Assembly: GCA_934444735.1 (NCBI GenBank)
Contig: CAKSDE010000003.1
Span: forward strand, 105,910 to 169,909
Length of the DNA stretch: 64,000 nucleotides
Reading direction: 5' to 3'
Origin: an uncultured Clostridia bacterium
GTDB taxonomy: Bacteria; Bacillota; Clostridia; UBA1381
Translations under genes and position numbers: made by a program
Notes under the pieces: generated by a model
The model's input: only the letters and a program-made list of their open reading frames with translations
Told to the model about the DNA's origin: nothing
The model's database searches: none
Shown here: piece by piece, positions 16,492 to 64,000 of the stretch
How the letters are laid out: each line of letters starts with the position of its first letter
Numbering within the stretch: the first letter of the stretch is position 1

Positions 16492-16550
16492 CTTGTGATA
16501 TAAAAATTTTGTTTTTACAATTACAAAAATATATAAAGGAGATTAAAACA

Positions 16551-22890: not shown

Positions 22891-25800
22891 TTACTTAACT
22901 CTCTTTTCTATAATTGCACCCACGCTGAAAACATAGTTTGTGTCGGTAGGTTGATCAATCACGACCCTTACGGTATGCTTCTTACCGTCTTTCGGGAGTT
23001 CAATCCAATTATGAGGGAACTGAAAATCCTCACTTGAATTAAAATACGTTTTCCATTTGCCGCTTTCCTTTCCGTCAACATAAACAGTTGCCTCCAAGCC
23101 GGCTTTCGATGTCAGATATACAAGACGAACCGCATCGGCATCAGATTTAAATTCAAATTCCGCATTTTGGGCATTTATCGCCTGCATAATCCCGTCTTTG
23201 CAAAATTCAAACTGACGTTCACTCACCGCAAAATTTGAATCTCCGGCAACAAATGCTTTATCGCGCTTTATCCAGTTTCCGGAATATTTCATTCCGGCCT
23301 CCGTTGCACTCCTTGATATATATTCGGTATATTGTTTATTTTCCTCGCACAATGGCTGCTTGTTTTTTGGAGTCTTTATAAAACTTTCAGTATCATTGTC
23401 TATAGCCTCAACAATTGCCTCTGCATACTTTTCATATCCGCCGTGTACGTCCCAGACATTTTCGCCTGTTTTTCTGTACATGGTATCATAATACTTTGCC
23501 AAGGTTAATGATGAATTGGATTCCTTTTGCTTTTCATAGTCACGCATCATATAGTCATGTATATTTACGGTCTTTATACCGTAATAATCCGCAAGTTCTT
23601 GTTTTGACGTGACTTCGGTTTCCCACGATTGCAAAGTTCCCGCAACGGTTTCCGTCGGCAGCGGTGCAAACAGGAATACAACCGCAGGTTTCTTTTCAAG
23701 CCTTTCGCACTGCATAACCATCTGTTCCATATACAGTTTTGCAGAAAGAGCATCAAATTTACTGTCATTTACAGCAAATTCAATAAATACAATATCCGGA
23801 TTGCACGACATAACGTCACGAGAAAATCTCGATGTACCAAACTCCGAATTTGTACCGCTAAGACCTGCATTTACGATTTTTATGTTTTTCACACCGAGCT
23901 TCTTTTTCAATTCCTCAACAGTTGCGGTTTCCCATAATTTTCCGCCCTGCGTTAAGGATCCGCCGATAAATGCTACCGTAAGCTCATCAACATTTGTATT
24001 TATCAGCGTTTGCTTATCGGAATCAACCGGCTGCTGCGGCTCTTGGGTATCTCCCCCCGAAACATAGCTCTTTTCCAATATCATTGTGATTATTTTTGCT
24101 ATCTGTCCGTTTGTTATATTTGTTCTCGGTGAGAACAGCGTCTGTGATACTCCCGTCATCAGCTTTGAATTAACTACCGCTCCGACATATCCTCTTGCCC
24201 ATTCTCCTATCAATTCTTTATCCTGATAAACGTTTATATCTGCCTCTTTGGATAATCCCAATATAATGCAAAGCACCTTTGCCAGCTCCTGACGGCTGAT
24301 ATTATCGTTCGGGCGGAAATTCACGTCCTTGCTGATTATTCCTTTATCAACCATAGTCTGGAGCATTTTTGCATACGGCTCATTTGTATTTACATCCGCA
24401 AATTCGTTGCGATATGCTGTTTCGCTGTAGCCCTGAACCTTGAATATATAAGTTATCAATTCCGATCTCGTTACATATTTGTCCGGATTAAACTTATTTT
24501 CACCGTCAAGGCTCATAATACCGTTTTTGAGCGCATTTTTCGCATATTCCTCCGCCCAGTGTCCGCCTAAATCAACCGGTTCACTGTTATTGGGCTTTTC
24601 TTCGGTTTTTACGGTAGGAACAGGATTTGTCCACGGGATACCTCCGCCGCTGCCGCCGCTTGATCCTCCCGAATGACCGCTCTTTCCGCTTACGCTCTGA
24701 CTCACGCTTACAGCCTCTCCGACAGACGGTTCTCTGTCCGCAACGGGAACCACCTCAAATTTTACCGTCTTTGTTCCGCTGAAATCTATGGTATAATCGG
24801 TACCTGTCGCCACTTTGCTGTCATTGACATACCATGTACAGATTGATTCTGCCTCCGATGCACCGTCTTTTTGTGAAAATTCATATGTTCCCGTCAATCT
24901 CGACCCGTTCTTTGTAATTTTAAGATTTTTGGCTTCGGGTGGTTTTGGCCCGGAAAAAGCCTGTTTGCTCATTGTCGGAGTCCCGTAATACGGTTCATTG
25001 TCCGATGCCGGAGTGACTTCAACCTGTATAAATTTATTCACATCATCTTTTGTCAGTATATAATTCTTTCCGACAGCCCCGTCAATCTTTACATATCCGT
25101 CTTTTTCATTGTCAGAACGATACCACTGATACTTATTTTCCGCCATATTGTCATCTTTATTTACATCGCTCCATGAAAAATCAGCGCTAAGCACTTCACC
25201 GATAAAAGCTTTTCCGTTTATCATCACATTCTCCGCAACAGGTGCCGTTGCCGGTGCAGCAATATTACTTTCTTCCGTTTTACCGGTCTCGGCTGCTGTT
25301 TTCGGTGTAACCCTTACCTTTATAAAGCAATCCTTATATTCCGGCGAAACAGTATATGTATCCTCTGTTGCACCCTCGATAATGTTGTAATTACCGTCCC
25401 GTATATCCGACCAAAGCCACACAACATCGCAATCACCCGCATCACCGTCTACTTGGTAAAAATCATAAGAAGCTGTAAGTTTACTGCCCTCTGCAACCGT
25501 TCCGAAAAGTTTTAAATTCAAGACTCTCGGCGTTTTATTGCTGTTTGAAACAAGCTCTATCGGATAAAGCTTTGTAAATGTGTTTTGTGTCCGCCCCTTA
25601 AATTGCGGTTTGCAAACTGCCTCAAGATATATTGTTCCGCTTACTGCCTCATCGGTTACGTGCAAGACATCATCTTTAATATACACACCTTTAACAGAGC
25701 TGTCGATATTCCAGAAAGTTTTTTCTTTTTCAAGTCCTGCTGTTGTACCAAGCTGATTTCTTGCATCTCCCAAAATCAGGCTTTGTGTTATTTCTCCTTT

Positions 25801-28056
25801 TTCGGGTATTTCAATTCTATCGGGCACAGATGCCGGAATGTCCGCAACTACCAAAGGTCCGATGTAAACGTCATCTATCAGATAATCATATCCTTTTGAG
25901 CCGCTCGGCCAGCAAGTTGCCACTCCGCGTGCCGTAGTATCCTTTGTCGAATAAACCAATCTCCAGATTCTCGTCCATTCTTCTTTACCTGCGGAAATTG
26001 TATCTGATGTCAGACTCTCATCGCCGCTCATTGTATATGAAAGTGAAAAATTGATATATTCTGTGCTTGCATCGGGGTGAACCTTAGCCATGCTTGAAAA
26101 CAAATATGTCACGCCTTGCGATACATTGACGGGATTTGATACAAGACCTGTTGTATTTTGTGTTCTGTTTGTGATTGCAGCACAGTATTTGCCGTCCGAT
26201 GCGTCTATATCTGTAACGGCAAATTTAGGATCGGGGTCACTGTCGTAATGCGTCAGTTTCCACCCTGTTTCACCCTCCTCAAAGCTGTGATTTTTCATCA
26301 GATTTGTAGCGGTATACACATCTTTTTCGATTTTTCCGCTCAATACCGACATAACCGGCGCACCGTACGGCGGCACAACCGCATAAGGTGTCACCTGAAC
26401 TTTTATATATTTCCCCAGCATATCTTCCGAAATCACATATCGCTTTTCGGTCTGTCCGGGAATTTCCGTAAATTTACTTCCGTCATCAGAAAAATACCAC
26501 TGATATTTCGTATCTCCCTCTTCATCTCCGTTTGGATCTTCAAAATCATACCTTGCCTCCATTGTCATACCGACTGCCGCAAATCCCTCAATCGCAACAT
26601 TTTTTGCAACCGGTGCAAGCGGCGGCAAAAGAATATTACTAAACTGCTCTTTTCCCGGCAGACCGTCATTACGTATCGGCAAAGCTTTGAATCTTATATA
26701 TTTATCCGCATATTGTGCATCTACTGCATATTCATCTCCCGATGCACCCGGAATTTCAAAAAAGTTCTTGCCATCATCCGAATACAGCCACGAAACCTCA
26801 ACCATACCGTCTATACCGTCTGTTTGCAAATAGGTATACTCGGCTTGAAGTTTTTCTCCTTCCGAAACGGTTCCCTTCGCCTTTAAATCTTTAACTTCGG
26901 GTATATTTCCCGAATATACCTTTATATCCTCAATCGTTTGGGTTGAAAGCACGCCGATTTGAGTGTTTTTTTCATCCAGTCCCATCACTTTTGAATTATC
27001 AAGCTCAACCCGATAAATTCCGCTCTCAAGGTTTTTACCAAATTTTAACGTATATTTTAAATCGCTTGCAATGCCTGTATATTCAACAGGCTCGCTGCTT
27101 CCTTCACAATAAATTTTGATATTATCCTCATTTAACGTACTCTTGTCCATCTTTCCGCTAAAGCCTATACTAATGCTGTCTGTGTTAAAATATGCGCTCG
27201 TTCCTGACGGATATAACGCTTTTGCCTCTCTGGTGCTGAGATTTTCCGAATATATCACGAAATCGTCTATATCCAGGGTCACGCCCGAAACAGATGCTTT
27301 CTCAAGTTTCATGTTCAGTCCGAGCGTATCTATAACGTTCAGATTATATAGCGGAAAATCATCGCATCCGCCCTGAAGCGCTCTGTTGGATAACGTCCAA
27401 AGTATAGTCCCTGTTTCTTCGTCCGTCCACGCCACATCATATTTTACAATATTTCCCGCAGCGCTTGCATAAAGCGATAAATCCACTTTATACCAATTAT
27501 CCTTTGCAGGATTATTCATATAAAAGTTTGAACCGGGGTATGAGCCAATCGAGCCGTTTTGCCACCGATCAAACATTGTAAGTCCCATGATCTCACAGCC
27601 GCGGCTGCCGCTCCACTGAGATGCTCCCATATTCCATACCGCATTTGATTGCAGTTCCCGGTAGGAGCTTATATCGGTATAGTTGAAAACCAAATCCTTT
27701 GAAAGTGCCGAAATGTCATTGCTTCTTACTTTCATGGATATTTTTGTCTTGCTCTTCGGTGCGATTTTATAGTCGGGAGATATGTATATATCCGGCATTT
27801 CATCAAGATTTGTGGATTTGCCGCGGTCACTGTTTATTGTGATTCTTGCAAATCTGTTGCCGTTTTCCTCCTCATTTGTGAGTACAACATCTCCTGCATA
27901 TGCACCCATTGTCAGTACATCGGTTGTTCCGTCCTCAAAATCGCAGTTGACCGCAAAATCCGATTCGGCATACGCTTTTTGAAACCTTCCCGGGAACACA
28001 GACAACGTCAATGCCGCACTGAGCATATAAGTAATATATTTTTTATTTATTTTCAC
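22891..28056 (-). CDS. Giant (1721 aa) multimodular cell-surface protein. Signal peptide, CBM-like N-domain, five YQWY Ig-like repeats with an embedded CBM4_9-like domain, Gly/Ser linker, three SLH domains, SGNH (GDSL-type) esterase, C-terminal beta-sandwich.
   Basis: Uses a GTG start (AGGAGG 8 nt upstream). Signal MKINKKYITYMLSAALTLSVFPGRFQKAYA. SLH consensus at about 24030-24575 (GHWAEEYAKNAL...FNPDKYVTRSELITY). SGNH blocks I and V at about 23330-23990 (AFIGGSLTQGG...FAVNDS...WDVHGG). N-domain 70% similar to that of 28128-31346. Confidence 0.8.
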   Translation of the reverse strand: MKINKKYITYMLSAALTLSVFPGRFQKAYAESDFAVNCDFEDGTTDVLTMGAYAGDVVLTNEEENGNRFARITINSDRGKSTNLDEMPDIYISPDYKIAPKSKTKISMKVRSNDISALSKDLVFNYTDISSYRELQSNAVWNMGASQWSGSRGCEIMGLTMFDRWQNGSIGSYPGSNFYMNNPAKDNWYKVDLSLYASAAGNIVKYDVAWTDEETGTILWTLSNRALQGGCDDFPLYNLNVIDTLGLNMKLEKASVSGVTLDIDDFVIYSENLSTREAKALYPSGTSAYFNTDSISIGFSGKMDKSTLNEDNIKIYCEGSSEPVEYTGIASDLKYTLKFGKNLESGIYRVELDNSKVMGLDEKNTQIGVLSTQTIEDIKVYSGNIPEVKDLKAKGTVSEGEKLQAEYTYLQTDGIDGMVEVSWLYSDDGKNFFEIPGASGDEYAVDAQYADKYIRFKALPIRNDGLPGKEQFSNILLPPLAPVAKNVAIEGFAAVGMTMEARYDFEDPNGDEEGDTKYQWYFSDDGSKFTEIPGQTEKRYVISEDMLGKYIKVQVTPYAVVPPYGAPVMSVLSGKIEKDVYTATNLMKNHSFEEGETGWKLTHYDSDPDPKFAVTDIDASDGKYCAAITNRTQNTTGLVSNPVNVSQGVTYLFSSMAKVHPDASTEYINFSLSYTMSGDESLTSDTISAGKEEWTRIWRLVYSTKDTTARGVATCWPSGSKGYDYLIDDVYIGPLVVADIPASVPDRIEIPEKGEITQSLILGDARNQLGTTAGLEKEKTFWNIDSSVKGVYIKDDVLHVTDEAVSGTIYLEAVCKPQFKGRTQNTFTKLYPIELVSNSNKTPRVLNLKLFGTVAEGSKLTASYDFYQVDGDAGDCDVVWLWSDIRDGNYNIIEGATEDTYTVSPEYKDCFIKVRVTPKTAAETGKTEESNIAAPATAPVAENVMINGKAFIGEVLSADFSWSDVNKDDNMAENKYQWYRSDNEKDGYVKIDGAVGKNYILTKDDVNKFIQVEVTPASDNEPYYGTPTMSKQAFSGPKPPEAKNLKITKNGSRLTGTYEFSQKDGASEAESICTWYVNDSKVATGTDYTIDFSGTKTVKFEVVPVADREPSVGEAVSVSQSVSGKSGHSGGSSGGSGGGIPWTNPVPTVKTEEKPNNSEPVDLGGHWAEEYAKNALKNGIMSLDGENKFNPDKYVTRSELITYIFKVQGYSETAYRNEFADVNTNEPYAKMLQTMVDKGIISKDVNFRPNDNISRQELAKVLCIILGLSKEADINVYQDKELIGEWARGYVGAVVNSKLMTGVSQTLFSPRTNITNGQIAKIITMILEKSYVSGGDTQEPQQPVDSDKQTLINTNVDELTVAFIGGSLTQGGKLWETATVEELKKKLGVKNIKIVNAGLSGTNSEFGTSRFSRDVMSCNPDIVFIEFAVNDSKFDALSAKLYMEQMVMQCERLEKKPAVVFLFAPLPTETVAGTLQSWETEVTSKQELADYYGIKTVNIHDYMMRDYEKQKESNSSLTLAKYYDTMYRKTGENVWDVHGGYEKYAEAIVEAIDNDTESFIKTPKNKQPLCEENKQYTEYISRSATEAGMKYSGNWIKRDKAFVAGDSNFAVSERQFEFCKDGIMQAINAQNAEFEFKSDADAVRLVYLTSKAGLEATVYVDGKESGKWKTYFNSSEDFQFPHNWIELPKDGKKHTVRVVIDQPTDTNYVFSVGAIIEKRVK
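24030..24575 (-). other. Three tandem SLH (S-layer homology) domains located internally in protein 22891-28056
   Basis: Three roughly 55-60 aa segments with the SLH consensus (W..EY...L...GI..G......F.P...ITR.E.A). Confidence 0.65.
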
Positions 28057-28127
28057 TTGCTGTTCCTCCTGTTTTTTTCAGAGAAACGGCGGCAGACCGC
28101 AGCCGCCGTTTCTTCGTATCGCATGAG

Positions 28128-31100
28128 TTATTTTATCTCGTCTGCAGCGCAAACCGGAATATAGTCGTTTTCCCACAAAAATGCCTTTGCCGTCATATTT
28201 GCTCTGTCCGCCGTTACATATTCTGCGGACATACCGCTCCACTCTGCACCTTGAGTTACGTTCATCAGGCTCTTGCCCGTCTTAACCGAAACCAAATTCA
28301 GCGAATCACCGTCTTTTTCGTAAAGTGCAATCGCATACATCGGCTTTGCAGCCTTTACGCCTGTGTTGGTATAGTTATATTTAACTTTATAATTATGTCC
28401 CTTTTCGATTACCGTAACCGCATTTCCGTTTTCATCTGTAATCTCTACGCTGTTTGCTACATTTCTTATGCATATATCATCAACATCAAATGTAATATTA
28501 TTAAGGAGTGCCGAAATTGTGTCATCACTTCTTAAAAGTCCCGTGAACGAGAACCCAATGTCCAGTATCTTGTCATCTTCTTTCAGACTCCAGTTATCTA
28601 CGGTTTTATCTGCAAGCGACGCCTCCAGCATACCGTCGGCATTGTACAAATAATAGCTTGCCTTCTCTATCTTACCTTCCGCGTCTGTACTGAATATGGT
28701 TTTTACGGTATACCATGCATTGTCCTCCATTATGCTTGAATCAGCCAAGGATTCGCCCTTTGCCTGCTTTTTATCGGGCATCCACCAGCAGGTTGCCGTC
28801 TTTTCCTGATACGGCATAACACGAAGATCTTTGTCCGAGAGATTATATCCCCAAATCTGATATATATTTCCGCCGAAGCTGTAAAGATCATTGTACTCGC
28901 TGTTCATCATCATACGCGCACGCAAATCCTTTATTGCATTTTCTCCGACATTGATTCTGAATTTTGACGAAACCTCAATACTGCTGTTCGCTTTCATCTT
29001 GTATCCTGTTTTTACATACATATCCGGCTGTGTACTTGTATATCCCGATGCCTGATTATTATTTGCATATGCTGTGCCTTTGGGTACTGTCATTCTGAGA
29101 TATGTATTGCCGTCCTCGGTTACCGTTTCTAATGTCGGTGTTCCGTTTGCCGCGCCCAACCGCCAGCCGTCTGTTGTTCCGTTTTCAAAATCATATTTTA
29201 TATTATCATTTTCCGATACTACCGTAAAACTGTATTGAGTATTTGCAAATACAGAACCCTCAGCTGTCATTTTATCGCCGAACACAACGGTATATGCTCC
29301 CGATTCCGGAGTCTGTGCAAAATCAATCGTGATTTCTTTGCTTCCTGCATTATAGCTTATATTTGCCGAAACTTCCACACCGTTTTCATCAAGCACTTTT
29401 ATATCCTCATATCCGTTTGCAAAATCCAAAGCCGAGCTGAGTGCAATTACTGCGCTTTCTCCCTGCTCAATAATATCATTTTTTAAGCTTGCGGTCGCAC
29501 GCTCACCCAATTCTTTCACCGTGAAGTTATCAATATCAAATGTTATAGGTGCATCGGCTGTTATTTCCTTTGCAAAATCGGTAAAGTCAAAATTAAGCGT
29601 ATCGATTACGTTCAATCTGCTGATTTTCGCAACAGGATCATTGGCAATATTCTGCTTTACATTCCATATAACATTTCCGTCCTCATCTGTTATATACATC
29701 CAAATCTGTCCGCATTCCGAATCACTGTTATAAAGCTTAACATTAACGTTATACCACTTATCTGCCGCAATCGGGCCCTTACCTAAAGATGTTGACGCAT
29801 AAAGCACCGTCTTATTCGCATCAAGCTTATTAAAGATATTGAGTCTGTCATATCTGCCCGTCCAGTTTGTGTCTTTGGTAAATCCCCAAAGCTTTCTTGA
29901 ATTTTCGATCTCATTTTTTGTATTTTCGTTTTGGTTTACAAGCATTGAGAAACAGGTATTTGTCAAATCCGAGAATCTCACCTTCATGAAAATATCTGTC
30001 CAGCGCTTATCGGTCAGAGCATATCCGCTGCCGTTTGCAAGCGATATTGAAAGATTCGGTCTTTTACCAAAATCATTTTCTTCTCTCCAGTCACCGACCA
30101 TGCTCACTCTTGCATACTTATTTCCGTTTTCTTCGGTTTGAACGCTCATATTGACTGTACCTTGCGAAGCATTAAGAGTCCAGTTGGAGGGTATTTCACC
30201 ATCTTCAAAATCATACTTTTCTTTCGTTCCTATCTTTTGTTCGGTTACGATGAATGTAAATTCATATTCATCAAGTGCATATCCGAGCACCGTCATACTT
30301 TCCGGCAATGTTACGGTATATCTTCCGGGAACAAGTGTTTCATTGGGTGTAATGATAATTCTGCTGTTTTCATTATCATATGTTGCTGTTGAGGAAATAA
30401 GCTCCGCACCCTTTTTAAGCACTACATTTCCTAACATACTTTCCAAACTGTCCGGCTTTGTGCTGAGCTGCACCTGTATATCGGAGGCACTCTCTCTTTC
30501 GCCCTCCGAAACAAGCGATACCTTTGTATTTACCGCATCCGGGTTATAAACTCTTAAATCATCTATGTCCAAGGTTACCCCGGAAACAGTTGCAGGCACA
30601 ACTCTTAAATTCAATCCCAAAGTATTGATTGTTTCCAGATTATAGAGCGGCAGACTTGCCTGATCACCCTGAAGCGCTCTGTTGGAAAGCATCCAAAGCA
30701 CTGTGTTATTTTCTTCGTCCGTCCATGTAACATCATACTTCACAATCTTTCCGCTTGTATTTGAGTAAAGCGTCATATCCACCTTATACCAATTATCCGC
30801 CGCCGGATTATTCATATAAAAGTTTGAACCCGGGTATGATGCAATCGCTCCGTTTTTCCACTGATCGAACATCGTAAGCCCCATAATATTGCAACCGCGG
30901 TTTGCATTCCACTGTGAACGCCCCATTTCCCATATAGTGCTTTCTCCTATTTCCTGATAAGTCTTACCGATATAGTTAAATACAAGCTTTCTCTCAAATG
31001 CAGCGATATTATTTGTCCTCATCTTCATGGAAATCTTAGTTTTGCTGCCCGGTGCTATCGCATAATCGGGAGATATGTATACATCGGGCATAACTGCAGG

Positions 31101-31346: not shown

Positions 31347-31388
31347 TTTTTTCTTCCTCCTTATTTTTTCGCATAAAGCGATTATTTT

Positions 31389-33959: not shown

Positions 33960-33978
33960 CTGACCATATCCCTCCTTT

Positions 33979-39800: not shown

Positions 39801-39826
39801 TTTTCATTCCTCCGTTTTTGATATTT

Positions 39827-41362: not shown

Positions 41363-41504
41363 ATATTCTCCTTTGAACGATAAAATCTTTTTTATATATA
41401 AACAGAAAATTGAAGTTCTGTTCCTTCCATTCTACGGATATTTTTATAATCAATTCATTACTTTAAACTGTTGCTCCTGATTTTGATTCGGCAATATAGT
41501 ACTC

Positions 41505-47008: not shown

Positions 47009-47010
47009 AG

Positions 47011-47829: not shown

Positions 47830-47964
47830 TTTCTTTTCTCCTTTTTATGGGTAAATTTTTAGGTAATTGTAAAACTAACGTTTTCCAATTAAAATTCTTA
47901 GGTAGAAATAAAAAGTTCCGGCTGATTTTAATTTTACGGCAGGTTGAAACTTTTTATTTCAGCC

Positions 47965-47991
47965 AAAAATGACGCACATGTCGTCATTTTT
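47965..47991. terminator. Bidirectional intrinsic terminator 175 nt downstream of gene 48167-50308
   Basis: AAAAATGACG-cacatgt-CGTCATTTTT, a 10 bp stem with A/T tracts on both sides. Confidence 0.6.
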
Positions 47992-48166
47992 GATTATAAA
48001 TCAGGGGTTGACACCCCCGATACCCCCATAAGAATGATGGCTAAAAAGTAAAAATTACATTTTACTTTTTACCTAATGGGTAAATTTTTACTCTATCTAA
48101 TACAATTTTACACCGACGTTTTTCTATTGTCAACCGAATATACAGAGTGAGGTTTGCTGCAATTCT

Positions 48167-50308: not shown

Positions 50309-50469
50309 CTTAAATCCCTATCCTTTTCGTTATAATCAGCCAGATTATCTGCTAATTCTATATTATATTTCCCGTCATTTTTTGTCAACCCCCAAATAAT
50401 GGCAAAAAAATTGCCATTTCTCTCAAAGCAAGAGAAGAATGGCACGAATACTTTTTCTGTAAGCTAAAA

Positions 50470-50503
50470 GGACCGAATCCCTCTTAATTATGGGATTCAG
50501 TCC
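50470..50503 (-). terminator. Intrinsic terminator after gene 50534-53491
   Basis: Minus-strand transcript forms GGACUGAAUCCC-auaauuaaga-GGGAUUCGGUCC (one mismatch) followed by UUUUAGCUU. Confidence 0.55.
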
Positions 50504-50533
50504 TCGCCATCTGATTATTTTTTTGTTGATCTA

Positions 50534-53491: not shown

Positions 53492-53492
53492 A

Positions 53493-55214: not shown

Positions 55215-56155
55215 AATCCCAATCCTTTCTCTGTGATGTCAGTATAATCGGAAAATTCCTTCTCCGAAATCACGACCACGCCGCGTGCGTCCCAATACAC
55301 CTTTTTCCCCAGTGCTTCGGCAAGCGCTCTTGCCGGAATCATCGTCCTCGAATCCTCAATATACGGTGCGCTGTCAAATTCTTTCTTTTCTCCGTTTTGC
55401 AGATATTCGCATCTGCCGATATAAAATGAAATCTCGTTTTCGCCGTATTTTATATCAACTCTCTTTTCCTCTTCATTCCAGCTCACGTCCGCACCCATCT
55501 TCTCCGAAACAAATCTTACCGGAATCATTGTTCTTGAATCCTTTATTACCGCTTTGCCCATGTCCATCGGTACTCTGTTTCCGTTTACAAGCGCATTTTC
55601 GGCATTGATCTTAAGAACAATTCCTTCCTCGCCGCCAAGATAATTCAAAAACGCTTCTTTTGTAGTCCTTACGAGCCTGAATGCACACGCGCTCGCATTC
55701 CCCTCACCGCTTGCCGTAATCTCCAGATCGAACACCAAGTCGGACGTGTTGCACACTCCGAGATACTGCCAGCCCGACTCGCCCTCCGAGCAGTCCATAA
55801 TACTTGTACCGCTCGACGAGCCTGTTGCAAACCATGCAACGCTTACATTCTTATCTCCGTTTTCAACCACATTTTTCCAAACGTATACTTCATAATATCC
55901 GTTATCTCCCGGGCGCACACCGCTCCATTTTGCACTTGCTCCCGCATCTTGTGCGGTTCTTTTTTCATGATCCGAAAAGCCGCAGCCGTCAGCGGTCCAT
56001 GCTCCCGTTTCACTATACTCCGAATTGCCGACATACCAAATCAAGCCGTCCTCCGAAATAACGGTCGTATTGCTCTCGTCGGGAATATCCCAAGCAAAAG
56101 CTTGTGGAAAAGACAGGCAAAAAATTATAATCACGCTTAATATTGTTTTCTTCAT
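55211..56155 (-). CDS. Secreted 314 aa protein. Unknown N-terminal domain plus two copper-amine-oxidase N-terminal-like (wall-binding or stalk) domains.
   Basis: Signal MKKTILSVIIIFCLSFPQAFA. C-terminal TMIPVRFVSEKMGADVSWNEEEKRV... and TMIPARALAEALGKKVYWDARGVVVI (PF07833-like). Four-nucleotide overlap with the downstream gene. Confidence 0.6.
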   Translation of the reverse strand: MKKTILSVIIIFCLSFPQAFAWDIPDESNTTVISEDGLIWYVGNSEYSETGAWTADGCGFSDHEKRTAQDAGASAKWSGVRPGDNGYYEVYVWKNVVENGDKNVSVAWFATGSSSGTSIMDCSEGESGWQYLGVCNTSDLVFDLEITASGEGNASACAFRLVRTTKEAFLNYLGGEEGIVLKINAENALVNGNRVPMDMGKAVIKDSRTMIPVRFVSEKMGADVSWNEEEKRVDIKYGENEISFYIGRCEYLQNGEKKEFDSAPYIEDSRTMIPARALAEALGKKVYWDARGVVVISEKEFSDYTDITEKGLGL

Positions 56156-56176
56156 TTTCTTTCCTCTCCTTTTCCG

Positions 56177-59100
56177 TTATTTTTGAAATTCCATTCCCGA
56201 TTTATTCAAATCATAGAAGTTTACGCGTGTCGATTTGAATTTTGAATACGGATCGGTATAATCGATAATCTTATTGCCGTCCGCATAGAGCATTACTCTC
56301 ATGCCCCTCATTGTCGGATATGCTCCGATTACAAGATTTGCAAATTCACCGTCTTTAATATACGTGTTCGTGACCTTTGCAAGTATTGACGAAGAGCCTT
56401 CGGAAACTCTCTTTAAGATAATCTTATCCGCACTCACATAAAATCTGTATCCTTCTTTATCATCTTCATCGGCACGGAGTGCAAAGCCTTGTCCCTCTCC
56501 CGAAAGATTAAACTTAACCTTAAGGTTCAGCACCTCATTCCCCGCAAATCCTCCTGCGGAAATGAGTGAGCTTTCAGCGCTCGTCTCCGTTTTATATGAT
56601 GCCGCGGTATCATTTTTCTCCAATACCGCCGAAACCGTCTTTATATCGTCCGATTTAAACAGCTTATCAAATCCGTCCGCTTTTTGCGGTTCAACAGCTG
56701 TAAGCTTTCCTGTGACAACGCTTGCATCAAAGCTCATATCGGTATCGTCGCTTTTGGCAACCTCTATATAATCTGTAACATGCTCCGCTGCATACATACG
56801 GTTATAAATCTGGAAATGTCCGGGTTCTGTTATAACTCCGTCACTGTCAAGCTCATTTAAAACGGTCTTGCCGTCCACTCTTAAAATAACTCTTATTCCG
56901 TCCTCGGTATCGAGCGCACCGACCTCATATTCATGCCACTGCTCATTTTTCACGAAATCATTCTTGATTTCTTTTAACATACCGCCGCCGCTGTTATATC
57001 TCTGGAACTCTATCACATCTTCTTTTATGATAATCATATACCCGACACCGCCGACGCCGTACGCCATGCCCGGTGTCTGCTGTCTTAATCCGAAGCCCGT
57101 CCATTCGCCTCCAAATTTCGCCTTCATCTTAAATTTCAGCAATTGATACCCGGGGAGCTCCGCCGCCTCGTAATATCCGAACTCCGTTCCCTCGATATGC
57201 ATAATACCGTCTTTGTATGTCGGAGTGCCGGCATACCAGCCGTCCTGATTTTCAAGCCAGCTCTCTATTGAAAGATAGCCGATATTTCTCGATGCCGTTG
57301 CTTTCTTTCTTGCGGCAATCAGCTTTTCCGTCATATCGTCAACAGCGTCTTGCTTGATAAATCTTGAATCGTTAACCGTCTGCGCCTCGTCAATCGCACT
57401 TTTAAATTCATCAATCGCGCTTTGAGTACATTGCCCCATTGCCTCTCCTACCGAAAGCTCCGACAATACCTCATTCGCCTTTTTGATTTCCTCCGCAATT
57501 ACAATTTTCTCGCTTTCTTCATATTTTGCGGTTCTTAGTCTGTACGGACTTCCCGTCGATTGCTTATCCGGAAGATTTTCCTTTGAAATATCAATCCCCG
57601 TAACCGTCCAATAGTACGTTTTCAAGCCCTCCTCAAGCTTATCGGTAGAATAATAGTTATATCCGACAATCTCGTCCGCAACAACATTTTTCATGTCCTT
57701 ATCGGTTGCGATAACGATTCTGTATTTATCGTATATATCACTTTTTGTCCATTTAAATTCCGTCTTTGCGGAATTTATATTATCCGCGCCGTTTTGCGGA
57801 TAAAGCTTTACAATATCTCTGTCCAAAAGCTTTTTCGCCTTTTCGAGCATATCTTCCGAAACACCCATTTCATCAAGCTTTATATTACTCAAGCCCGGGT
57901 GTGTCTTTAAAATTTCGCTGTTCTCTTTTATTTCAAAGTTCCCGTGCGCCTCATCGACAAAATCATCGAATTTATCTGTCGAATAATTGTTTCTGTCCTC
58001 ATTTGCCAAAACCTTATCTCCCGTATATTCGGGGATTTCGTAAATCGATCTTACAAACAAATTATCCACAACATGGTTATCGTGCGCCATATGCTCGGAT
58101 TCCCTCAAATTTGCAATTTTCGGGAACCGCTCAAGATAAATCGGGTACTTTTTAACCCACTCGTCACACGAATCAAAAAGTTCTGCCCACTGACCTTTTG
58201 CGCCGGATATTCTAACTCCGACATCATTATCAATAAAGATGTTATCATGAATTTCGGCGTCATTTCCCGTATTCATGAATACACCTCTTGACATTCCGCA
58301 AAAGATGTTATTATGTATATACCACTCACTCAGACGGTCGTCCATATAAACACCGCAGGCAATCTCACCGATGCTCTTATCCAGCGATTTTACATGGTGA
58401 ATGTAATTGTTTGAAATGTCCACTCCGCGCTGATAGAGGTTTCTTCCTGCATAGATTGCTCCCGAGTCATGCACCTCTTTACATGAATCAAAAAGCTCGT
58501 TATTATATATCTTATGCAGACTTCCTCCGCCTGTTATAAGGTGCGAACCTGCATTGTGCATCGTACAGTTCTTTACAGTTATTCCGACTCCCAAAAATCT
58601 CACTGCCGGAACATAGCCCACAATCTCTGTACCCACACCCGAAAAATAGCAGTTTTCGATTATATTGCCCGATTCGGTCAAGGTCGGCTCATCTCCGCCC
58701 TGCAAGTCGATTGTGGTAAATCCGATATTATTGAATATCGAATTTTTTATAACTATATTATATGAATTTGGAGTTTTCTGGTACTGTCTGTACAGATCCA
58801 CATAATCTCTTATCCCCATGCCCTCAATATCTCTGAATGTGCAGTTATCAAAGGTTATATCTGTACATGACGGCAGCTGAACCGCGTCATATCTCGACTG
58901 CGCAAATTCCAGTCCCTCAAAGTTCACATAATGCACATCACTTAATTTCAGCATAACCGAAGAAAGCGTTGATATTTCAAGCACCTCATCGGAAATGCGG
59001 TTCTGCGGATAATAATATAAAAGCATAGAATCCGGGTCTATGTACCACTCGCCCGGCATATCTATTTCCTCCAAAAGATTATACACAAAATATCTTCTGT

Positions 59101-59902
59101 TTGCACCACTTATCGAACCATCGAGATTCATCGTAAGCGTTCTGTCTTTCGTGTTTATCTTCGTCACTATCTGTCTTTCAAAATTGTAATCATTTTTAAA
59201 ATATCCGCCGACACGCGCATCTTTTGCCTCGCCCCATCGGGTAACGTTATATTCCGCTGTCTGGAAGGTCTTTGATGCCGCATTGGTAATCTTTTTTATC
59301 GTCGTATATCCCGAATTCGGGAATCGCGCCAGGGTTTGTGCACGGTCGTCAAGATAAAGCTGATGATAACCCGTCACGGCTTTTGCGCCGCTTCTGTAAT
59401 ACGGCACCTCGCCTACCATTTTTATCCCCTGCGTCTTTAAGTCCATCACACCGACATGATCCCGTGAATTTTCGGGGAGTCTTTTTAAGATTGCGGGGTC
59501 TGTCACTTTCTTAAAAGCCTTCGTATCCAGAACCTTTGAGCCTTTGAATATAACCCGTTCATTTTCCGCCGCTTTATATGTTATCGGCGCGTCCTCCGTT
59601 CCGCTGTCCTTTGAATCAAAATTTACGGTATCGGAAAGTCTGTATGTACCCTCATGAAAAATTATATTTATCGGCTTTTTCTGATCTGCACGAATCGCTC
59701 TTGCAAGCTTTCTTGCCTTGTCAAACGTAGCAACAGGCGCATTCTCATCTCCGCTTTTTGCATCATTTCCGTTGGGGGAAACGTGAATCTCTATCACATC
59801 ACCCGATGTCTTGTTCTCAGTTTCCTGCGCAGCTGCGCAAACGGCATATGCCGTTTGCGCAAATATAATCGCAGATAAAATAATTGCTGTAAATTTTTTC
59901 AT
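56177..59902 (-). CDS. Secreted 1241 aa beta-helix enzyme paralog with two C-terminal jelly-roll (DUF1080/LamG-like, CBM-like) domains
   Basis: Signal MKKFTAIILSAIIFAQTAYA. IHVSPNGNDAKSGDENAPVATFDKA, ARFPNSGY, EIDMPGEWYIDPDS, EVHDSGAIYAGRN. C-terminal two repeats with GW...W..GFGLR motifs. Confidence 0.7.
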   Translation of the reverse strand: MKKFTAIILSAIIFAQTAYAVCAAAQETENKTSGDVIEIHVSPNGNDAKSGDENAPVATFDKARKLARAIRADQKKPINIIFHEGTYRLSDTVNFDSKDSGTEDAPITYKAAENERVIFKGSKVLDTKAFKKVTDPAILKRLPENSRDHVGVMDLKTQGIKMVGEVPYYRSGAKAVTGYHQLYLDDRAQTLARFPNSGYTTIKKITNAASKTFQTAEYNVTRWGEAKDARVGGYFKNDYNFERQIVTKINTKDRTLTMNLDGSISGANRRYFVYNLLEEIDMPGEWYIDPDSMLLYYYPQNRISDEVLEISTLSSVMLKLSDVHYVNFEGLEFAQSRYDAVQLPSCTDITFDNCTFRDIEGMGIRDYVDLYRQYQKTPNSYNIVIKNSIFNNIGFTTIDLQGGDEPTLTESGNIIENCYFSGVGTEIVGYVPAVRFLGVGITVKNCTMHNAGSHLITGGGSLHKIYNNELFDSCKEVHDSGAIYAGRNLYQRGVDISNNYIHHVKSLDKSIGEIACGVYMDDRLSEWYIHNNIFCGMSRGVFMNTGNDAEIHDNIFIDNDVGVRISGAKGQWAELFDSCDEWVKKYPIYLERFPKIANLRESEHMAHDNHVVDNLFVRSIYEIPEYTGDKVLANEDRNNYSTDKFDDFVDEAHGNFEIKENSEILKTHPGLSNIKLDEMGVSEDMLEKAKKLLDRDIVKLYPQNGADNINSAKTEFKWTKSDIYDKYRIVIATDKDMKNVVADEIVGYNYYSTDKLEEGLKTYYWTVTGIDISKENLPDKQSTGSPYRLRTAKYEESEKIVIAEEIKKANEVLSELSVGEAMGQCTQSAIDEFKSAIDEAQTVNDSRFIKQDAVDDMTEKLIAARKKATASRNIGYLSIESWLENQDGWYAGTPTYKDGIMHIEGTEFGYYEAAELPGYQLLKFKMKAKFGGEWTGFGLRQQTPGMAYGVGGVGYMIIIKEDVIEFQRYNSGGGMLKEIKNDFVKNEQWHEYEVGALDTEDGIRVILRVDGKTVLNELDSDGVITEPGHFQIYNRMYAAEHVTDYIEVAKSDDTDMSFDASVVTGKLTAVEPQKADGFDKLFKSDDIKTVSAVLEKNDTAASYKTETSAESSLISAGGFAGNEVLNLKVKFNLSGEGQGFALRADEDDKEGYRFYVSADKIILKRVSEGSSSILAKVTNTYIKDGEFANLVIGAYPTMRGMRVMLYADGNKIIDYTDPYSKFKSTRVNFYDLNKSGMEFQK

Positions 59903-59921
59903 CTTTTCAATTCCTATATTA

Positions 59922-62900
59922 TTATTTTGTTACAGGTGTCATTCCCGAAAGGCTGTTCCATACATACACCTGTATGCTTGCAGCACCCTCCGGCACATCA
60001 AACGCAACTCCGTTTTCTGCTGTTGTTACCTGCAAAAGCTTACCGTCTGCATCCTTTACCGCTGCCAAAACTCTATCATTTGTATATGTAGAAACAAAAT
60101 ATACTGTTGCCTTTCCATTTGCAAGAGCTGCATATGCTTGTGTAGAATCCAACTCATCTTTTATTCTGCCGATTCTGTTCATATCGATATCTGCCTTAAC
60201 TGTTCCTTCTTTAGCGTCCGCAAGCGTCTCTGTTCCCGAAACTTCCGCATTTGCATTATTGACAATGTCTGTATCGCAATTTACAAATTTATTTCCGATA
60301 GCAGTAACACCTGCCGGCACGAAGTTTTCTACGGCAACCGTAAGAGGTGCAAGATAATCTGCGCCGAACTTTTCTTCATATGCACTGTTTGCCGCAAAGA
60401 AATCAGCCGCATATTTTGTCATCGACTTACCGTCAATTTCAAAGCCTGTAATCGGATTGTTTCCGAGTACTACTCCGTACTGATAGCAGTTCACCAAAAC
60501 ATTGTTGTCTATTGTGTTAAGCGCACCGCCGTTCGAGAACACTCCTCTTCCGGCATTTTCGATAACGTTGTGGTGTATATTTGTGCCGCTAAGCCCGTCA
60601 TCAAGATATATACCGGCAATCAGAGCGCCGTCTGCCCTGTCTGCATTTACTATGTGGTTATAGCTGATCTCATTTCCGAGATATATAAGATTTCTGCCGC
60701 CGTAGATAGCGCCCAAATCTGCCGCCTCACGTCCCGCACGTATTATTTCGTTATTTGTAATCTTATTGAGCGCACCGCTGAATCCTATCAATATAGACTT
60801 AGAATCCGCAACATAGTTATTTCTTACAACATTGCCGACACCGTTTATATTTATACCCTGCGCATAGCATCTTACGATACTTCCCGGCTTTTCAACAGAG
60901 TTGTTCTCGATTACGTTACCCGATTCGGTAAGCGTCTTAAGATCTCCGCCCTCTGCATATATTCCCATGTATCCGAGATTTGCAAGCTTGGAATTTTTGA
61001 TATTCACATTGCTTGAATTTTTAGCAATTACCGCACTTCTGCCGATCTCCTTAAAGGTACAGCCGTCAATTACGGCAGATGCCGCACCGTCTATATTAAG
61101 AGCGTTTCCGCAGGTGTCTTTAAATGTAACTCCGCTTATTTCAAGATTTGCAGCATTGGAGTTTATCATATCTCCCACAAGGTTCGATACTTCGATTTCT
61201 GTCTCGCCCGTCTTGGGGATATAATAGAGAACCTTTTGCGCCTTATCCAGATACCATTCGCCCGAAACGTCCATAAGTCCCAGACTGTTAAAGAGTCTCC
61301 AGTTTCTCTTTATTCCGTAGATTTTCTTTGCCTTTATCGAATTGAGTGTAAGAGTTGAACCTTCAATCGTAAAGTCGGTTGTTTTATATGTTCTGTACGG
61401 CTCTGCGAAATATCCTTCGATTGCAAGATTTTCATCATCACCGTAATAGAGAAATTCATCGTTTTCTATCGAAATGTCATCTCCGGCTGTCGTATTTATG
61501 CTTGCTTCCTCAATCAAGCCGTCATTATTCGGATATTCCGCAATCGGATTTATCGAATCCTTTGAGAATACACCGAAAGTATATGTTGCCGTAAGACTGT
61601 TATTCTTGTTCAAAATCGAATCTGCCGTATAATCCATACCGATATCCGAAAGCGCAATCTTTTTAGCTCCGGCAATATCTGCATAATCGCTCATATCCGA
61701 TATTTTTACCGTCTTTGAGCCTTTTACAACAGGGTTTGCTCCCTCTGCCGCTTTTATTGTAACCTTTCCGCGGATATTCGAGATATTTATTGTATTATCC
61801 ACTTCATACTCGCCGTCTGCAAGAGTTATTATAACCTCTCTTACATATGTTGAATTTATGTCCTTCTCCTGTGCCGCACTTACCGCCTGTGCAAGAGTCT
61901 TAACCGGATTTTCTGCTGTTCCGTCATCGGAATCCTTACCATTCGGTGCAGCGTAAATTTCAATAGGTTCTTTTGAATCGTCCGCCTGACTTCCGCTTTG
62001 GAGTCTGCGGTTTGTAAGAAGAGTCATTCCGAGATATGTTGCGCCGTGCTTTTGCGTTTCAACGGCAACCGCCTCTGAATTAACCACATCACCGTTTGAG
62101 GCAATCAAATCAAAGCTCTCAAGAACATACGCACTGTCGCACGGAACCGTTATCTGATTGATATATACGGTTCCCGACTTTACAGCCACGCCGTTTTCCG
62201 GTGTTGCCCCATCAACCGCAACAGCATTGCCGCCGTCTTTTCCGACAGATGTATTATCATACTGAATCCAGCCGCTTGTTCTGCCGCCTTTATAGTTAAA
62301 TCTTATATATCCGATTTCATCATCTTTATATCCCTTGCCGCCGCCGATAAAGCTTACGGCTGTGTAATATCCGTCAGAAACGTCAATTCTTGAATAATAG
62401 TCATCGCTTGTTGTACTTGTGTAGCTTGAATTTTTACCCCATACGGTATCTACTCTTACAGTATAATCAATGTCGTTTACCGTAAACACACCGTCGCTGT
62501 AATTTGCCGCAGTCATATCCGGTACCGTTTTCCAGTTATTGAGTGCAAGGAAGGAATCCTTAAAAATACCCTTTCCGTATCCCGAATAAACATTGTAATA
62601 AGTTCTTTCGTTATTTGCAAAAGCGTCAGGTCTTACCTGAACACATACGGTCTTTGCGTCCTTTATAAGTATTCCGTTTGTCTTTAAACCGATACCGAAC
62701 CAACGTACATTATATGTTGAACCGCTCAACTCATCTGTAAGCTCACCGTTTCCGATAACCGCATCTCTTGACGGGAAATCTATGGATGTAAGCACTTTAT
62801 TTGAATCTACCGCTACATTATACTGATGCATATAGCGTATATTTTCTGTATAATTTCCCTTTCCGGTACTTCCCGAAAATCCTGTCAGAGTCAGATATTC

Positions 62901-64000
62901 TCCGTCAACGCCCTTATCATTGTATTTTTTAACATCGTTTCCTTGAGAATCCTTTAAAATTACAAATCCGCTGTTTGTTCCGTCCGCATAGTTCAAACGT
63001 ACAGCCGCAGCACTCGCATTATATTCCAATCCGCCCAAAAAGCTTATTCCGTTGTAATATCCGTCTGCGATATCTATTGTATAATAATTCTTGCCTTCAT
63101 TTGCGCTTGCCGCTCCCGGCTGGAATGTTACTAATGTTGATGAGTCACTGCTGTCTACAACCGCAATATCATACTCATATCCGTTAAATACCAAAGTATT
63201 GTGCTTTTCTTCGCCCCATACATTCTTCCATGAATAGCCTGAGTCCGCAGCAGGTGCCTTGAATTTATCAGCAACAATACCTGTTTGCGAGAATGTATTT
63301 GCAACTCCCTTTTCATCCAGTGCATTATAATACGCTCTGAATGAATTTACAAATGATGTATACGGCACGCTTACAAATACATCTTGAATATCGTCCTGAT
63401 ATTGCAGATAATCCATAGCTCTGTAGTATATCGCCTGTCCCGCTTCGCTCTTTACTGTATCGGGATCAATATCCGAGTATATCTCCATAAGCTGCCTGAG
63501 CAAAGCGATATTTTCATCTGTTGCCACAAATTTATCGGCAGTCGGGAGCTGTTCCAATATATCCGCAAGCAGATCAAGCTTTGTATTTGTAGCGCACTCT
63601 TCATCCGTAAGAAGTGTTACACCCACAAAAAGCGCGGTATATGCATAATTATTAACCGTTCCTGCCGCATCGGTATACTGTACCGGATCATCGCTCGTTC
63701 CGACAGTTACTTTACCGTTTCTTGCCAAAATATCAAAGCTGTCGAGCATTTTTGTACTGTCAACGCTTGTTTCGTTTATCTGATAAAGGTAAACTTTCAG
63801 GTCTGTTCCGTCTGCATCTTTATCTGTGGGGATCGAATTTTCATTGTCCCAGCCGATTCCCGGAACTGCAAGACATACTTCTCCCTCATCCGGTGCTTCC
63901 GTCACTTTTTTATTTATTCCCGGCTGAACCCACTCGGACTTTGTTCCGTCTGTATAGTTATATCTTATGTACGGCATATCGCCCCATAGGTCTTTGCCGC
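59922..64000 (-). CDS. Secreted beta-helix enzyme paralog, more than 1351 aa, 5-prime end outside the window. Carries the roughly 70 aa module at its extreme C-terminus.
   Basis: Open reading frame continues to the window edge without a signal peptide in view. Core IYAAPNGKDSDDGTAENPVKTLAQA, EYPNNDG, DVSGEWYLDKAQ, AADLGAIYGGRN. C-terminal LAAVKDADGKLLQV...IQVYVWNSLSGMTPVTK. Confidence 0.65.
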   Translation of the reverse strand, partial: GKDLWGDMPYIRYNYTDGTKSEWVQPGINKKVTEAPDEGEVCLAVPGIGWDNENSIPTDKDADGTDLKVYLYQINETSVDSTKMLDSFDILARNGKVTVGTSDDPVQYTDAAGTVNNYAYTALFVGVTLLTDEECATNTKLDLLADILEQLPTADKFVATDENIALLRQLMEIYSDIDPDTVKSEAGQAIYYRAMDYLQYQDDIQDVFVSVPYTSFVNSFRAYYNALDEKGVANTFSQTGIVADKFKAPAADSGYSWKNVWGEEKHNTLVFNGYEYDIAVVDSSDSSTLVTFQPGAASANEGKNYYTIDIADGYYNGISFLGGLEYNASAAAVRLNYADGTNSGFVILKDSQGNDVKKYNDKGVDGEYLTLTGFSGSTGKGNYTENIRYMHQYNVAVDSNKVLTSIDFPSRDAVIGNGELTDELSGSTYNVRWFGIGLKTNGILIKDAKTVCVQVRPDAFANNERTYYNVYSGYGKGIFKDSFLALNNWKTVPDMTAANYSDGVFTVNDIDYTVRVDTVWGKNSSYTSTTSDDYYSRIDVSDGYYTAVSFIGGGKGYKDDEIGYIRFNYKGGRTSGWIQYDNTSVGKDGGNAVAVDGATPENGVAVKSGTVYINQITVPCDSAYVLESFDLIASNGDVVNSEAVAVETQKHGATYLGMTLLTNRRLQSGSQADDSKEPIEIYAAPNGKDSDDGTAENPVKTLAQAVSAAQEKDINSTYVREVIITLADGEYEVDNTINISNIRGKVTIKAAEGANPVVKGSKTVKISDMSDYADIAGAKKIALSDIGMDYTADSILNKNNSLTATYTFGVFSKDSINPIAEYPNNDGLIEEASINTTAGDDISIENDEFLYYGDDENLAIEGYFAEPYRTYKTTDFTIEGSTLTLNSIKAKKIYGIKRNWRLFNSLGLMDVSGEWYLDKAQKVLYYIPKTGETEIEVSNLVGDMINSNAANLEISGVTFKDTCGNALNIDGAASAVIDGCTFKEIGRSAVIAKNSSNVNIKNSKLANLGYMGIYAEGGDLKTLTESGNVIENNSVEKPGSIVRCYAQGININGVGNVVRNNYVADSKSILIGFSGALNKITNNEIIRAGREAADLGAIYGGRNLIYLGNEISYNHIVNADRADGALIAGIYLDDGLSGTNIHHNVIENAGRGVFSNGGALNTIDNNVLVNCYQYGVVLGNNPITGFEIDGKSMTKYAADFFAANSAYEEKFGADYLAPLTVAVENFVPAGVTAIGNKFVNCDTDIVNNANAEVSGTETLADAKEGTVKADIDMNRIGRIKDELDSTQAYAALANGKATVYFVSTYTNDRVLAAVKDADGKLLQVTTAENGVAFDVPEGAASIQVYVWNSLSGMTPVTK

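Follow-up and report, generated by a model that had tools for sequence, protein, structure and literature searches.

A recurrent cassette of GH141-like beta-helix proteins and SLH proteins in a probable surface glycan-degradation locus of an uncultured gut Clostridia bacterium

Hydrolases that carry carbohydrate-binding modules (CBMs) and are anchored by SLH domains, together with import by ATP-binding cassette (ABC) transporters and intracellular hydrolases, are established in Paenibacillus sp. JDR-2 (proteins Xyn10A1, Bgl16A1 and Amy13A2), and similar systems are found in Clostridium, Caldicellulosiruptor and Thermoanaerobacter (PMC4765114). Here, we describe a locus in a stretch of 64,000 nucleotides (nt) from an uncultured Clostridia bacterium (contig CAKSDE010000003.1; hereafter the window), comprising positions 22891-64000 and an extension read from an identical contig (L001; numbers of this kind denote the contigs and loci compared). 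To our knowledge, Gram-positive polysaccharide-utilisation loci (PULs) have no hallmark genes comparable to SusC/SusD, and the use of glycans by uncultured gut Clostridia is poorly mapped. The locus displays a recurrent cassette in which putative enzymes resembling glycoside hydrolase family 141 (GH141) are accompanied by two unannotated families of SLH proteins, named below after members of 573 and 856 amino acids (aa). We consider it probable (about 0.65) that this is a cell-surface apparatus for the depolymerisation of a complex extracellular glycan in an uncultured human-gut Clostridia bacterium, that is, a variant of the established SLH-anchored Gram-positive strategy in which catalysis and anchoring are spread over several polypeptides. 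Should the SLH pair turn out to act as a marker or scaffold, the prediction of such loci in Bacillota would improve, and a new mode of surface enzyme display would be defined.

As in JDR-2, predicted secreted depolymerases stand beside SLH and CBM domains at the wall, cytoplasmic glycosidases would finish the breakdown, regulation is of the AraC or two-component type, and relatives of the locus carry CUT1 ABC transporters. Unlike JDR-2, the window has its catalytic and SLH domains on separate polypeptides, CuAO-N modules, two unannotated SLH families and no transporter, and its catalytic family would be the GH141-like beta-helix. The anchoring proteins of the cellulosome (SdbA, OlpB and OlpC of C. 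thermocellum) are also non-catalytic wall proteins encoded beside secreted enzymes, but the locus has neither cohesin nor dockerin. S-layer proteins with N-terminal SLH domains, such as B. anthracis Sap and P. alvei SpaA, can be compared with the 856 family; the 856-family genes, however, stand at the end or in the middle of catabolic operons, and there are two of them instead of the one strongly expressed gene of an S-layer. Finally, enzymes and regulators are co-localised as in Gram-positive PULs, and relatives have a transporter as well, but the window locus has none and thus falls outside the strict definition of enzyme plus transporter plus regulator.

Two paralogous cassettes

The locus extends from position 22891 to approximately 4.9 kb beyond the end of the window, counting a fourth AraC gene. 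Window positions 47899-64000 are 100% identical to the human-gut metagenome contig L001 (ENA ERZ4567797, NODE_2772, from the Hadza/Nepal study), which adds the gene of a 1015-aa protein and the fourth AraC gene, and the same genes recur in several further metagenome samples. A preliminary description, made from the letters of the window, had seen a tightly packed, minus-strand layout, and this holds for 22891-64000 with the sole exception of an AraC gene at 42934-43797. The same description treated these 41 kb as a single unit. Instead, the locus consists of two paralogous cassettes or operons, each beside a divergent AraC gene, with a cytoplasmic block between them and with promoter-like sites and a hairpin in between.

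Cassette I (window positions 50534-64000 and about 4.6 kb of genes past the window) encodes proteins of 1015, 1535, 1241, 314, 573 and 985 aa, and cassette II (22891-42758) encodes a GH28 and a GH3 protein followed by proteins of 1076, 864, 856, 1072 and 1721 aa, all on the minus strand. Each encodes a pair of secreted beta-helix proteins of GH141-like type, a CuAO-N module, a protein whose C-terminal part has three SLH repeats and a member of the 856 family. By inspection, signal peptides are clear in 11 of 12 cassette proteins other than GH28 and GH3, the called start of the 1015-aa protein being possibly truncated; no signal peptide was found in GH28, GH3 or the genes of the central block. 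The domains previously listed (SLH, CuAO-N, GDSL/SGNH, GH28, GH3 and Beta_helix) each have a Pfam match. Similarly, the reported absence of cohesin and dockerin was confirmed, as Pfam gave neither in any protein examined (E <= 0.01 for locus proteins). The two GH3 and three AraC genes that had been counted do exist, but just one of each lies within 22891-64000; the remaining GH3 gene is found at 4907-6448 and the remaining AraC genes at 6658-7611 and 10887-11786, with copper-ATPase, GH38/lyxose and tricarboxylic acid (TCA) cycle genes intervening. The G+C content is even along the region (approximately 0.39-0.44). On the 3′ side, beyond 22891, the locus is flanked by genes for DUF1015, aconitase and isocitrate dehydrogenase, and past the fourth AraC gene the identical contig continues with the housekeeping genes Rex and IspF.

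The first gene of cassette I lies outside the window, with the fourth AraC gene, read in L001, upstream of it and divergent. It encodes the secreted 1015-aa protein, whose unannotated repeated module is paralogous to the N-terminal modules of the 1535-aa protein encoded 61 nt further on. The window holds the 3′ part of this second gene (59922-64000, 1359 codons). It had been described as closed, with a start at 63977, but the frame is open to base 64000 and gives a secreted protein of 1535 aa in the identical contig: three copies of an unannotated module of 200-300 aa, then a GH141-like beta-helix with Pfam matches to Beta_helix and, weakly, to GH141_M. After 19 nt follows the gene of the secreted 1241-aa protein (56177-59902; Pfam Beta_helix), with a GH141-like beta-helix at about residues 30-690, an unannotated C-terminal half and PDB matches to 9rx2 (1.5e-13) and 5mqp (7.9e-13). 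The 314-aa protein (55211-56155; 21 nt from the preceding gene; Pfam Cu_amine_oxidN1, 5e-33) is composed of a signal peptide, a small Golvesin_C-like beta-sandwich and CuAO-N. Its gene overlaps by 4 nt with that of the secreted 573-aa protein (53493-55214), in which a conserved N-terminal region of about 390 aa precedes three SLH repeats (Pfam, 1e-39). The last gene, 1 nt away, encodes the secreted 985-aa protein (50534-53491), an 856-family member paralogous to the 856-aa protein, in which an SLH domain at the N-terminus (Pfam, residues 96-133) precedes a beta-rich body; its homologs are a 990-aa protein in L098 and the C-terminal part of a 1376-aa protein in L097. The spacings of +1, -4, +21 and +19 nt in the block 50534-64000 match the range of -4 to +21 nt given earlier, and the 4-nt overlaps and gaps of 1-21 nt are compatible with co-translation.

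Cassette II starts with the gene of a cytoplasmic GH28 protein of 417 aa (41505-42758; Pfam PF00295, 80.2 bits, cut-off 22.9). The catalytic Asp motifs NND192 and GDD213-214 are both present, and the NCBIfam matches to PglB and to rhamnogalacturonidase were below the cut-offs. After 142 nt comes the gene of a cytoplasmic GH3 protein of 511 aa (39827-41362) consisting of the N-terminal domain only (Pfam Glyco_hydro_3, 3e-65). It shares 65% protein identity with the GH3 encoded at 4907-6448, and 76-78% in stretches of DNA, and both contain the motif KHFPGDG-x4-NQH. NagZ enzymes have the motif KH(F/I)PG(H/L)G-x4-D-[ST]-H with an Asp-His dyad. Neither GH3 protein classifies as NagZ: the Asp-His motif is missing from both, and NCBIfam PRK05337 gave 109 bits for a cut-off of 207.

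The secreted 1076-aa protein (36570-39800, 26 nt from the GH3 gene) has a full-length homolog in L090; its first 400 aa contain an incomplete copy of the beta-helix N-domain, and residues 400-1076 form the GH141-like beta-helix. Overlapping this gene by 4 nt, the next (33979-36573) encodes the secreted 864-aa protein, in which a GH141-like beta-helix is followed by a C-terminal CuAO-N domain (Pfam Beta_helix and Cu_amine_oxidN1), an architecture found in at least nine loci of Clostridia metagenome-assembled genomes (MAGs). The secreted 856-aa protein (31389-33959, 19 nt further) has no Pfam match. The secreted, unannotated 1072-aa protein (28128-31346, after 42 nt), with neither a Pfam nor a PDB match, repeats the N-terminal module of the 1721-aa protein three times (57% identical over 270 aa, with internal repeats).

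The secreted 1721-aa giant itself (22891-28056, after 71 nt; Pfam and NCBIfam) is ordered as this N-terminal module, four IG_AIR9 repeats, CBM_4_9, three SLH repeats (about residues 1112-1327) and a C-terminal SGNH/GDSL esterase domain. The latter matches PF13472 with 40.7 bits (cut-off 32.9), and FIGGSLT, NAGLSG and FAVND correspond to the Ser, Gly and Asn blocks. Of the two multi-CBM-like giants proposed earlier, what stands is one CBM_4_9 in the 1721-aa protein; the module common to the 1721- and 1072-aa proteins is unlike that CBM and was rejected as one, profile comparison with CBM_4_9 showing likeness only at the DFEDGT start. The shared module of about 70 aa is real and common to the 1721-aa protein and a 1307-aa protein outside the locus, its identity being that of an Ig-like IG_AIR9/SCAB-Ig repeat. 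A GC-rich hairpin with a T-rich tail lies at 28090-28108, in the 71-nt gap between the 1072- and 1721-aa genes, and may, from its sequence, be an internal attenuator; a terminator scan of 22300-42299 gave no excess over shuffled sequence.

The beta-helix family and the SLH proteins in related loci

Of the five paralogous secreted beta-helix proteins counted in the preliminary description, four are detectable (864, 1076, 1241 and 1535 aa), with identities of 25-31%; GH28 is the fifth beta-helix, lacks a signal peptide and shows no detectable paralogy to the other four. A family profile built from 39 sequences matched 9rx2 over its full length (5.6e-75), a PDB entry titled 'parallel beta-helix repeat protein' for which no function or paper was found in the searchable literature. 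The match of the profile to the GH141 enzyme BT_1002 (5mqp; 2.2e-32) was limited to chain residues 26-118, 250-327 and, weakly, 450-525, and a match to GH120 (3vst) gave 8.6e-10. Pfam GH141_M scored 17-23 bits on the beta-helix proteins, under the cut-off of 27. Judged by sequence, the family is related to BT_1002 and closer to 9rx2, and is a candidate member of GH141. An N-terminal domain, the insertion motif GEWY.D...YYYP and, by prediction for the window family, the right-handed beta-helix are common to the window family, GH141 and 9rx2, but similarity to BT_1002 is limited to the N-terminal and insertion regions, and 9rx2 fits far better.

Residues N471, D482 and D523 (alignment numbering) are invariant in the 39 sequences. 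The invariant Asp pair corresponds to D502/D543 in the 864-aa protein, D865/D910 in the 1076-aa protein, D479/D521 in the 1241-aa protein and D1271/D1310 in the 1535-aa protein, a spacing of 39-45 residues across the four paralogs. Two invariant Asp residues about two coils apart recall the catalytic pair of BT1002, D523/D564 (PMC12786026), and the 864-aa protein has the same spacing as BT1002 (41 residues), in a region that is not alignable to 5mqp. By our own count, the second invariant Asp aligns with D382 of GH120. We take this D382 to be the GH120 catalytic nucleophile.

The beta-helix family is widespread, secreted and biochemically uncharacterised. It was found in more than 533 loci in Clostridia, Paenibacillus/Cohnella, Planctomycetota, Armatimonadota, Verrucomicrobiota and Bacteroidota, the closest relatives (35-39% identical) being in Clostridia MAGs of human and ruminant guts, and a crude hydrophobicity check found signal peptides in 30 of 33 members sampled across phyla. 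Among the neighbours in the 80 of these loci that were retrieved, AraC regulators (25) and two clusters of CUT1 ABC permeases (23 and 20) were the most frequent, followed by a DUF3502 binding protein (14), GH2 (10), GFO/IDH/MocA oxidoreductases (8), sulfatases (5) and GH94 (5). These neighbours, together with the signal peptides, point to a carbohydrate-active extracellular role and do not by themselves name the substrate.

SLH-mediated wall anchoring calls for two or more consecutive SLH repeats, and the 573- and 1721-aa proteins have three each; the SLH assignment is backed by both Pfam and structure. For the 856-aa protein, an AF2 model built from 99 sequences (pLDDT 56 in an earlier run with 6 sequences) predicts that a cryptic SLH domain near the N-terminus (about residues 85-170) leads into some seven small beta-barrels of OB-like type, and shows no fold of an enzyme. 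Foldseek against the PDB returned only low-TM OB-fold pieces, and PDB sequence searches with the 856-, 713-, 1072- and 1307-aa proteins gave nothing useful. Similarly, a relaxed Pfam scan gave nothing significant for the N-terminal regions of the 314-, 573- and 1076-aa proteins, the C-terminal half of the 1241-aa protein, module A of the 1072-aa protein and the repeated module of the 1015- and 1535-aa proteins.

The 856 family comprises at least 6324 cluster representatives, and Pfam has no model for its body. All six sampled members lie in a sugar-utilisation locus, usually directly after the gene of an SLH protein, with catalytic enzymes that vary; a metagenome scan with the family returned one locus. 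Among 13 856-family genes, one is an SLH-856 fusion (L097), and 10 of the 12 others adjoin a gene encoding C-terminal SLH domains, five by a 4-nt overlap. A beta-helix protein (with CuAO-N), a 1721-like SLH giant and an 856-family member occur together in L005, L007, L013, L059, L090, L091 and L095, with the 1721-aa homologs adjoining the 856-family genes, and the cassette is also found in L097 and L098. The comparison with related Clostridia called for in the preliminary description thus showed that the cassette recurs. Several loci add histidine kinase or AraC regulators, ABC permeases and a binding protein; L013, for example, has a histidine kinase, two ABC permeases and a DUF3502 binding protein, and transporters are present in L013, L093 and L099.

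Cassette I is mirrored in L098, which encodes a beta-helix protein, a beta-helix-CuAO-N protein, 577- and 990-aa proteins, a Pect-lyase-like protein, GH95, GH3 and GH42. The 577-aa protein is a full-length homolog of the 573-aa protein (E 3.5e-70). Such full-length homologs lie directly upstream of 856-family genes in L098 and L099, or one gene off in L093 (E 3.5e-70 to 6e-40), and the 573/856-like pair keeps different company in L099 (CBM96/BNR proteins, an ABC transporter and GH94) and in L093 (an FAD oxidoreductase, GH4, an ABC transporter and a two-component system). The 856 family and the second SLH family with which it is paired seem to belong to the usual accessory equipment of glycan-utilisation loci in Clostridia.

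Fusions connect the parts further. A 1566-aa open reading frame (ORF) of L097 unites the 1241- and 314-aa proteins, positions 3289-7068 of L097 corresponding to residues 1-1239 of the former and 7069-7971 to residues 16-312 of the latter, unbroken; in the lineage of the window, then, the Golvesin_C-like/CuAO-N unit has split off and gained its own signal peptide. In the same locus, GDSL, SLH and a 985-like body are fused in the 1376-aa protein. In L012 (CAKSSZ010000005.1, a Hadza Clostridia MAG), one ORF of 2188 aa (7340-13927) unites IG_AIR9 repeats with a GH141-like beta-helix and three SLH repeats. Such fusions and fissions in relatives tie the separate genes of the window to one process. 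The putative attachment logic free of cohesin and dockerin that had been suggested for the locus, by which a complex might assemble, gains comparative support from the SLH pair and the fusions in relatives.

Interpretation of the locus

The earlier view of a carbohydrate locus with surface anchoring is upheld by the relationship to GH141 and 9rx2, the signal peptides and the AraC, CUT1 ABC, DUF3502 and GH2 neighbours in the 80 loci. From domain content, paralogy, secretion signals, conserved synteny and fusions, which were observed directly, we infer catalysis, co-localisation at the surface, import and a substrate as follows. The secreted GH141-like beta-helix enzymes of each cassette would cut the glycan, and the CuAO-N module, fused or split off, would keep them at the wall. 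They would have two partners, both SLH-anchored and non-catalytic: a protein with C-terminal SLH repeats that bears either Ig, CBM and SGNH-esterase domains or a conserved N-domain, and a rod of small beta-barrels with an N-terminal SLH domain. Oligosaccharides would then be imported by a transporter encoded elsewhere, and the cytoplasmic GH28, GH3 and GH42-like enzymes would complete the breakdown. PF07833 (CuAO-N) domains are reported to occur in surface proteins and to be frequent in cell-wall hydrolases (PMC4137172), and the cell-surface protein OlpC of C. thermocellum joins a cohesin to a PF07833-like domain (PMC3413522), which is consistent with, and no proof of, a role in wall association or docking.

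Several findings weigh against this explanation. No enzymatic activity can be assigned to the beta-helix proteins, GH141_M being below its gathering score and the catalytic region not alignable to BT_1002. Of the four beta-helix proteins, three lack an anchoring domain themselves, and their retention at the surface is putative. No transporter was found in or beside the locus (22891-64000 and 5.9 kb beyond, in L001). Moreover, the central block is decaying or unrelated, with a DUF6259 gene frameshifted in all strains, a kinase gene split in one and MurQ in none of the 80 related loci.

A possible refinement of the favoured explanation, which we hold only tentatively, is that the 573 and 856/985 proteins would form a generic wall platform to which otherwise unanchored carbohydrate-active enzymes dock non-covalently, with the Golvesin_C-like/CuAO-N unit as candidate docking element; such a scaffold would be a functional analogue of anchoring scaffoldins that works without cohesin and dockerin. 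The adjacency of 856-family and C-terminal-SLH genes, the SLH-856 fusion, the association of the pair with other enzymes (CBM96/BNR in L099, FAD oxidoreductase in L093), the occurrence of CuAO-N either fused to an enzyme or separate with its own signal peptide, and the precedent of OlpC all argue in this direction. Neighbouring genes may, however, be just co-regulated and encode independent binding or spacer proteins, and some enzymes of related loci (L012, L099) bear their own SLH domains, such that a scaffold is not strictly required. If true, this would be a cohesin/dockerin-independent assembly system, with a possible marker gene pair for Gram-positive PULs. Somewhat less likely is the substrate first proposed, that is, a system specific for pectin, rhamnogalacturonan or rhamnogalacturonan-II (RG-II). 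A GH28 with its catalytic Asp motifs is present, the SGNH esterase could deacetylate pectin, the syntenic L098 has a Pect-lyase-like protein and GH95, and BT1002, the founding GH141 enzyme, acts on RG-II (PMC12786026). Yet the GH28 protein is cytoplasmic, and just 3 of the 80 related loci have one; the beta-helix family is nearer to the uncharacterised 9rx2 than to BT1002, and GH141 is polyspecific, with alpha-L-fucosidase (BT_1002, on RG-II fucose), xylanase (Xyn141E) and endo-fucanase (Wf141, on fucoidan) activities. No PL1, PL9, PL11, CE8, GH105 or GH78 was found above threshold and no uronate-catabolism gene at the locus, and the family's neighbours elsewhere include GH2, GH94, sulfatases and oxidoreductases. 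A pectin or rhamnogalacturonan substrate is therefore not established.

We regard it as improbable that the locus serves the cell's own envelope, through S-layer-like proteins, the remodelling of the secondary cell-wall polymer or capsule, and peptidoglycan recycling by MurQ, the kinase and GH3. An above-threshold MurQ equivalog with a sugar kinase beside it and a GH3 nearby, the reported frequency of PF07833 in cell-wall hydrolases and the lack of a transporter at the locus would fit such a function. However, related loci contain sugar ABC transporters, sensor kinases, GH2, GH94, GH95 and GH42, which are typical of catabolic loci, and the locus itself encodes AraC regulators and a CBM_4_9 domain. 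None of the 80 related loci contains MurQ or the kinase, whose two genes are preceded by a separate promoter-like site, and the GH3 proteins do not have the Asp-His motif of NagZ. A phage depolymerase was rejected, as there are no phage genes, and a Bacteroidetes-type PUL was rejected since neither SusC nor SusD was found at the locus.

Central block and the rest of the window

Four genes between the cassettes had been missed previously, all on the minus strand. The cytoplasmic 713-aa GH42-like protein (48167-50308; Pfam Glyco_hydro_42, 27.1 bits, cut-off 21), without a signal peptide, is separated from the 985-aa gene by 225 nt that hold a promoter-like site (50388-50360), and its gene probably has its own promoter; a hairpin lies downstream at about 47985-47960. 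A GH42 gene is also present in the syntenic L098. The 337-nt spacer that follows (47830-48166) contains this low-GC hairpin (ATGACG...CGTCAT, then five T) and the direct repeat AAAAATTTACCCAT, as well as a promoter-like site ahead of murQ (48133-48105) with 11 of 12 consensus positions. Two independent assemblies stop within 11 nt of each other in this spacer, NODE_2772 at 47899 and scaffold_296 at about 47910. This stretch may represent a junction that varies between strains, or else an operator.

N-acetylmuramic acid 6-phosphate etherase, MurQ (272 aa; 47011-47829; NCBIfam TIGR00274, an equivalog, 345.4 bits, cut-off 302), is short, covering models of 291-300 positions up to about 260-265, and its usual C-terminal segment is missing. 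The adjacent gene (45887-47008) encodes a 373-aa protein with HTH_3 and a BadF/BadG-type sugar kinase domain (NagK/MurK-like; Pfam and NCBIfam), which is split into 167 and 212 aa in one other strain (L086). The DUF6259 gene (43794-45915; Pfam) is frameshifted at an A7 run (about 44691-44700) into ORFs of 429/422 aa and 297 aa with 62 nt in common, and profile positions 8-137 and 150-270 fall on separate ORFs. Assembly error was rejected as the cause, as the identical split is seen in at least 12 contigs from at least four samples. The gene is probably a pseudogene, being either a fixed pseudogene or a two-ORF arrangement; no paper was found on DUF6259 or DUF5696. Given its own promoter-like site, its absence from the 80 related loci and its decay, the murQ/kinase/DUF6259 block is probably a separate unit. 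The plus-strand AraC-family regulator (42934-43797; Pfam HTH_18, HTH_AraC and AraC_binding) is convergent to DUF6259 and divergent from the GH28-led operon across a 175-nt gap.

Elsewhere in the window, 880-4803 encodes the secreted 1307-aa protein, which has three repeats of Big_2, a jelly-roll-like unit of about 200 aa and IG_AIR9, and neither an SLH nor a catalytic domain. It is linked to the main locus only via the Ig repeat and the adjacent GH3 paralog at 4907-6448. The region 10887-17225 is a separate sugar-catabolic module, in which a minus-strand PocR-AraC gene is divergent from a plus-strand operon for GH38 alpha-mannosidase, FGGY kinase, class II aldolase and D-lyxose isomerase; a GH38 gene also adjoins the cassette in L095 and L013. 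Finally, a copper P-type ATPase with two HMA domains (7946-10453) has a G+C content of 0.51, compared with about 0.42 around it, and may, from this composition, have been horizontally acquired.

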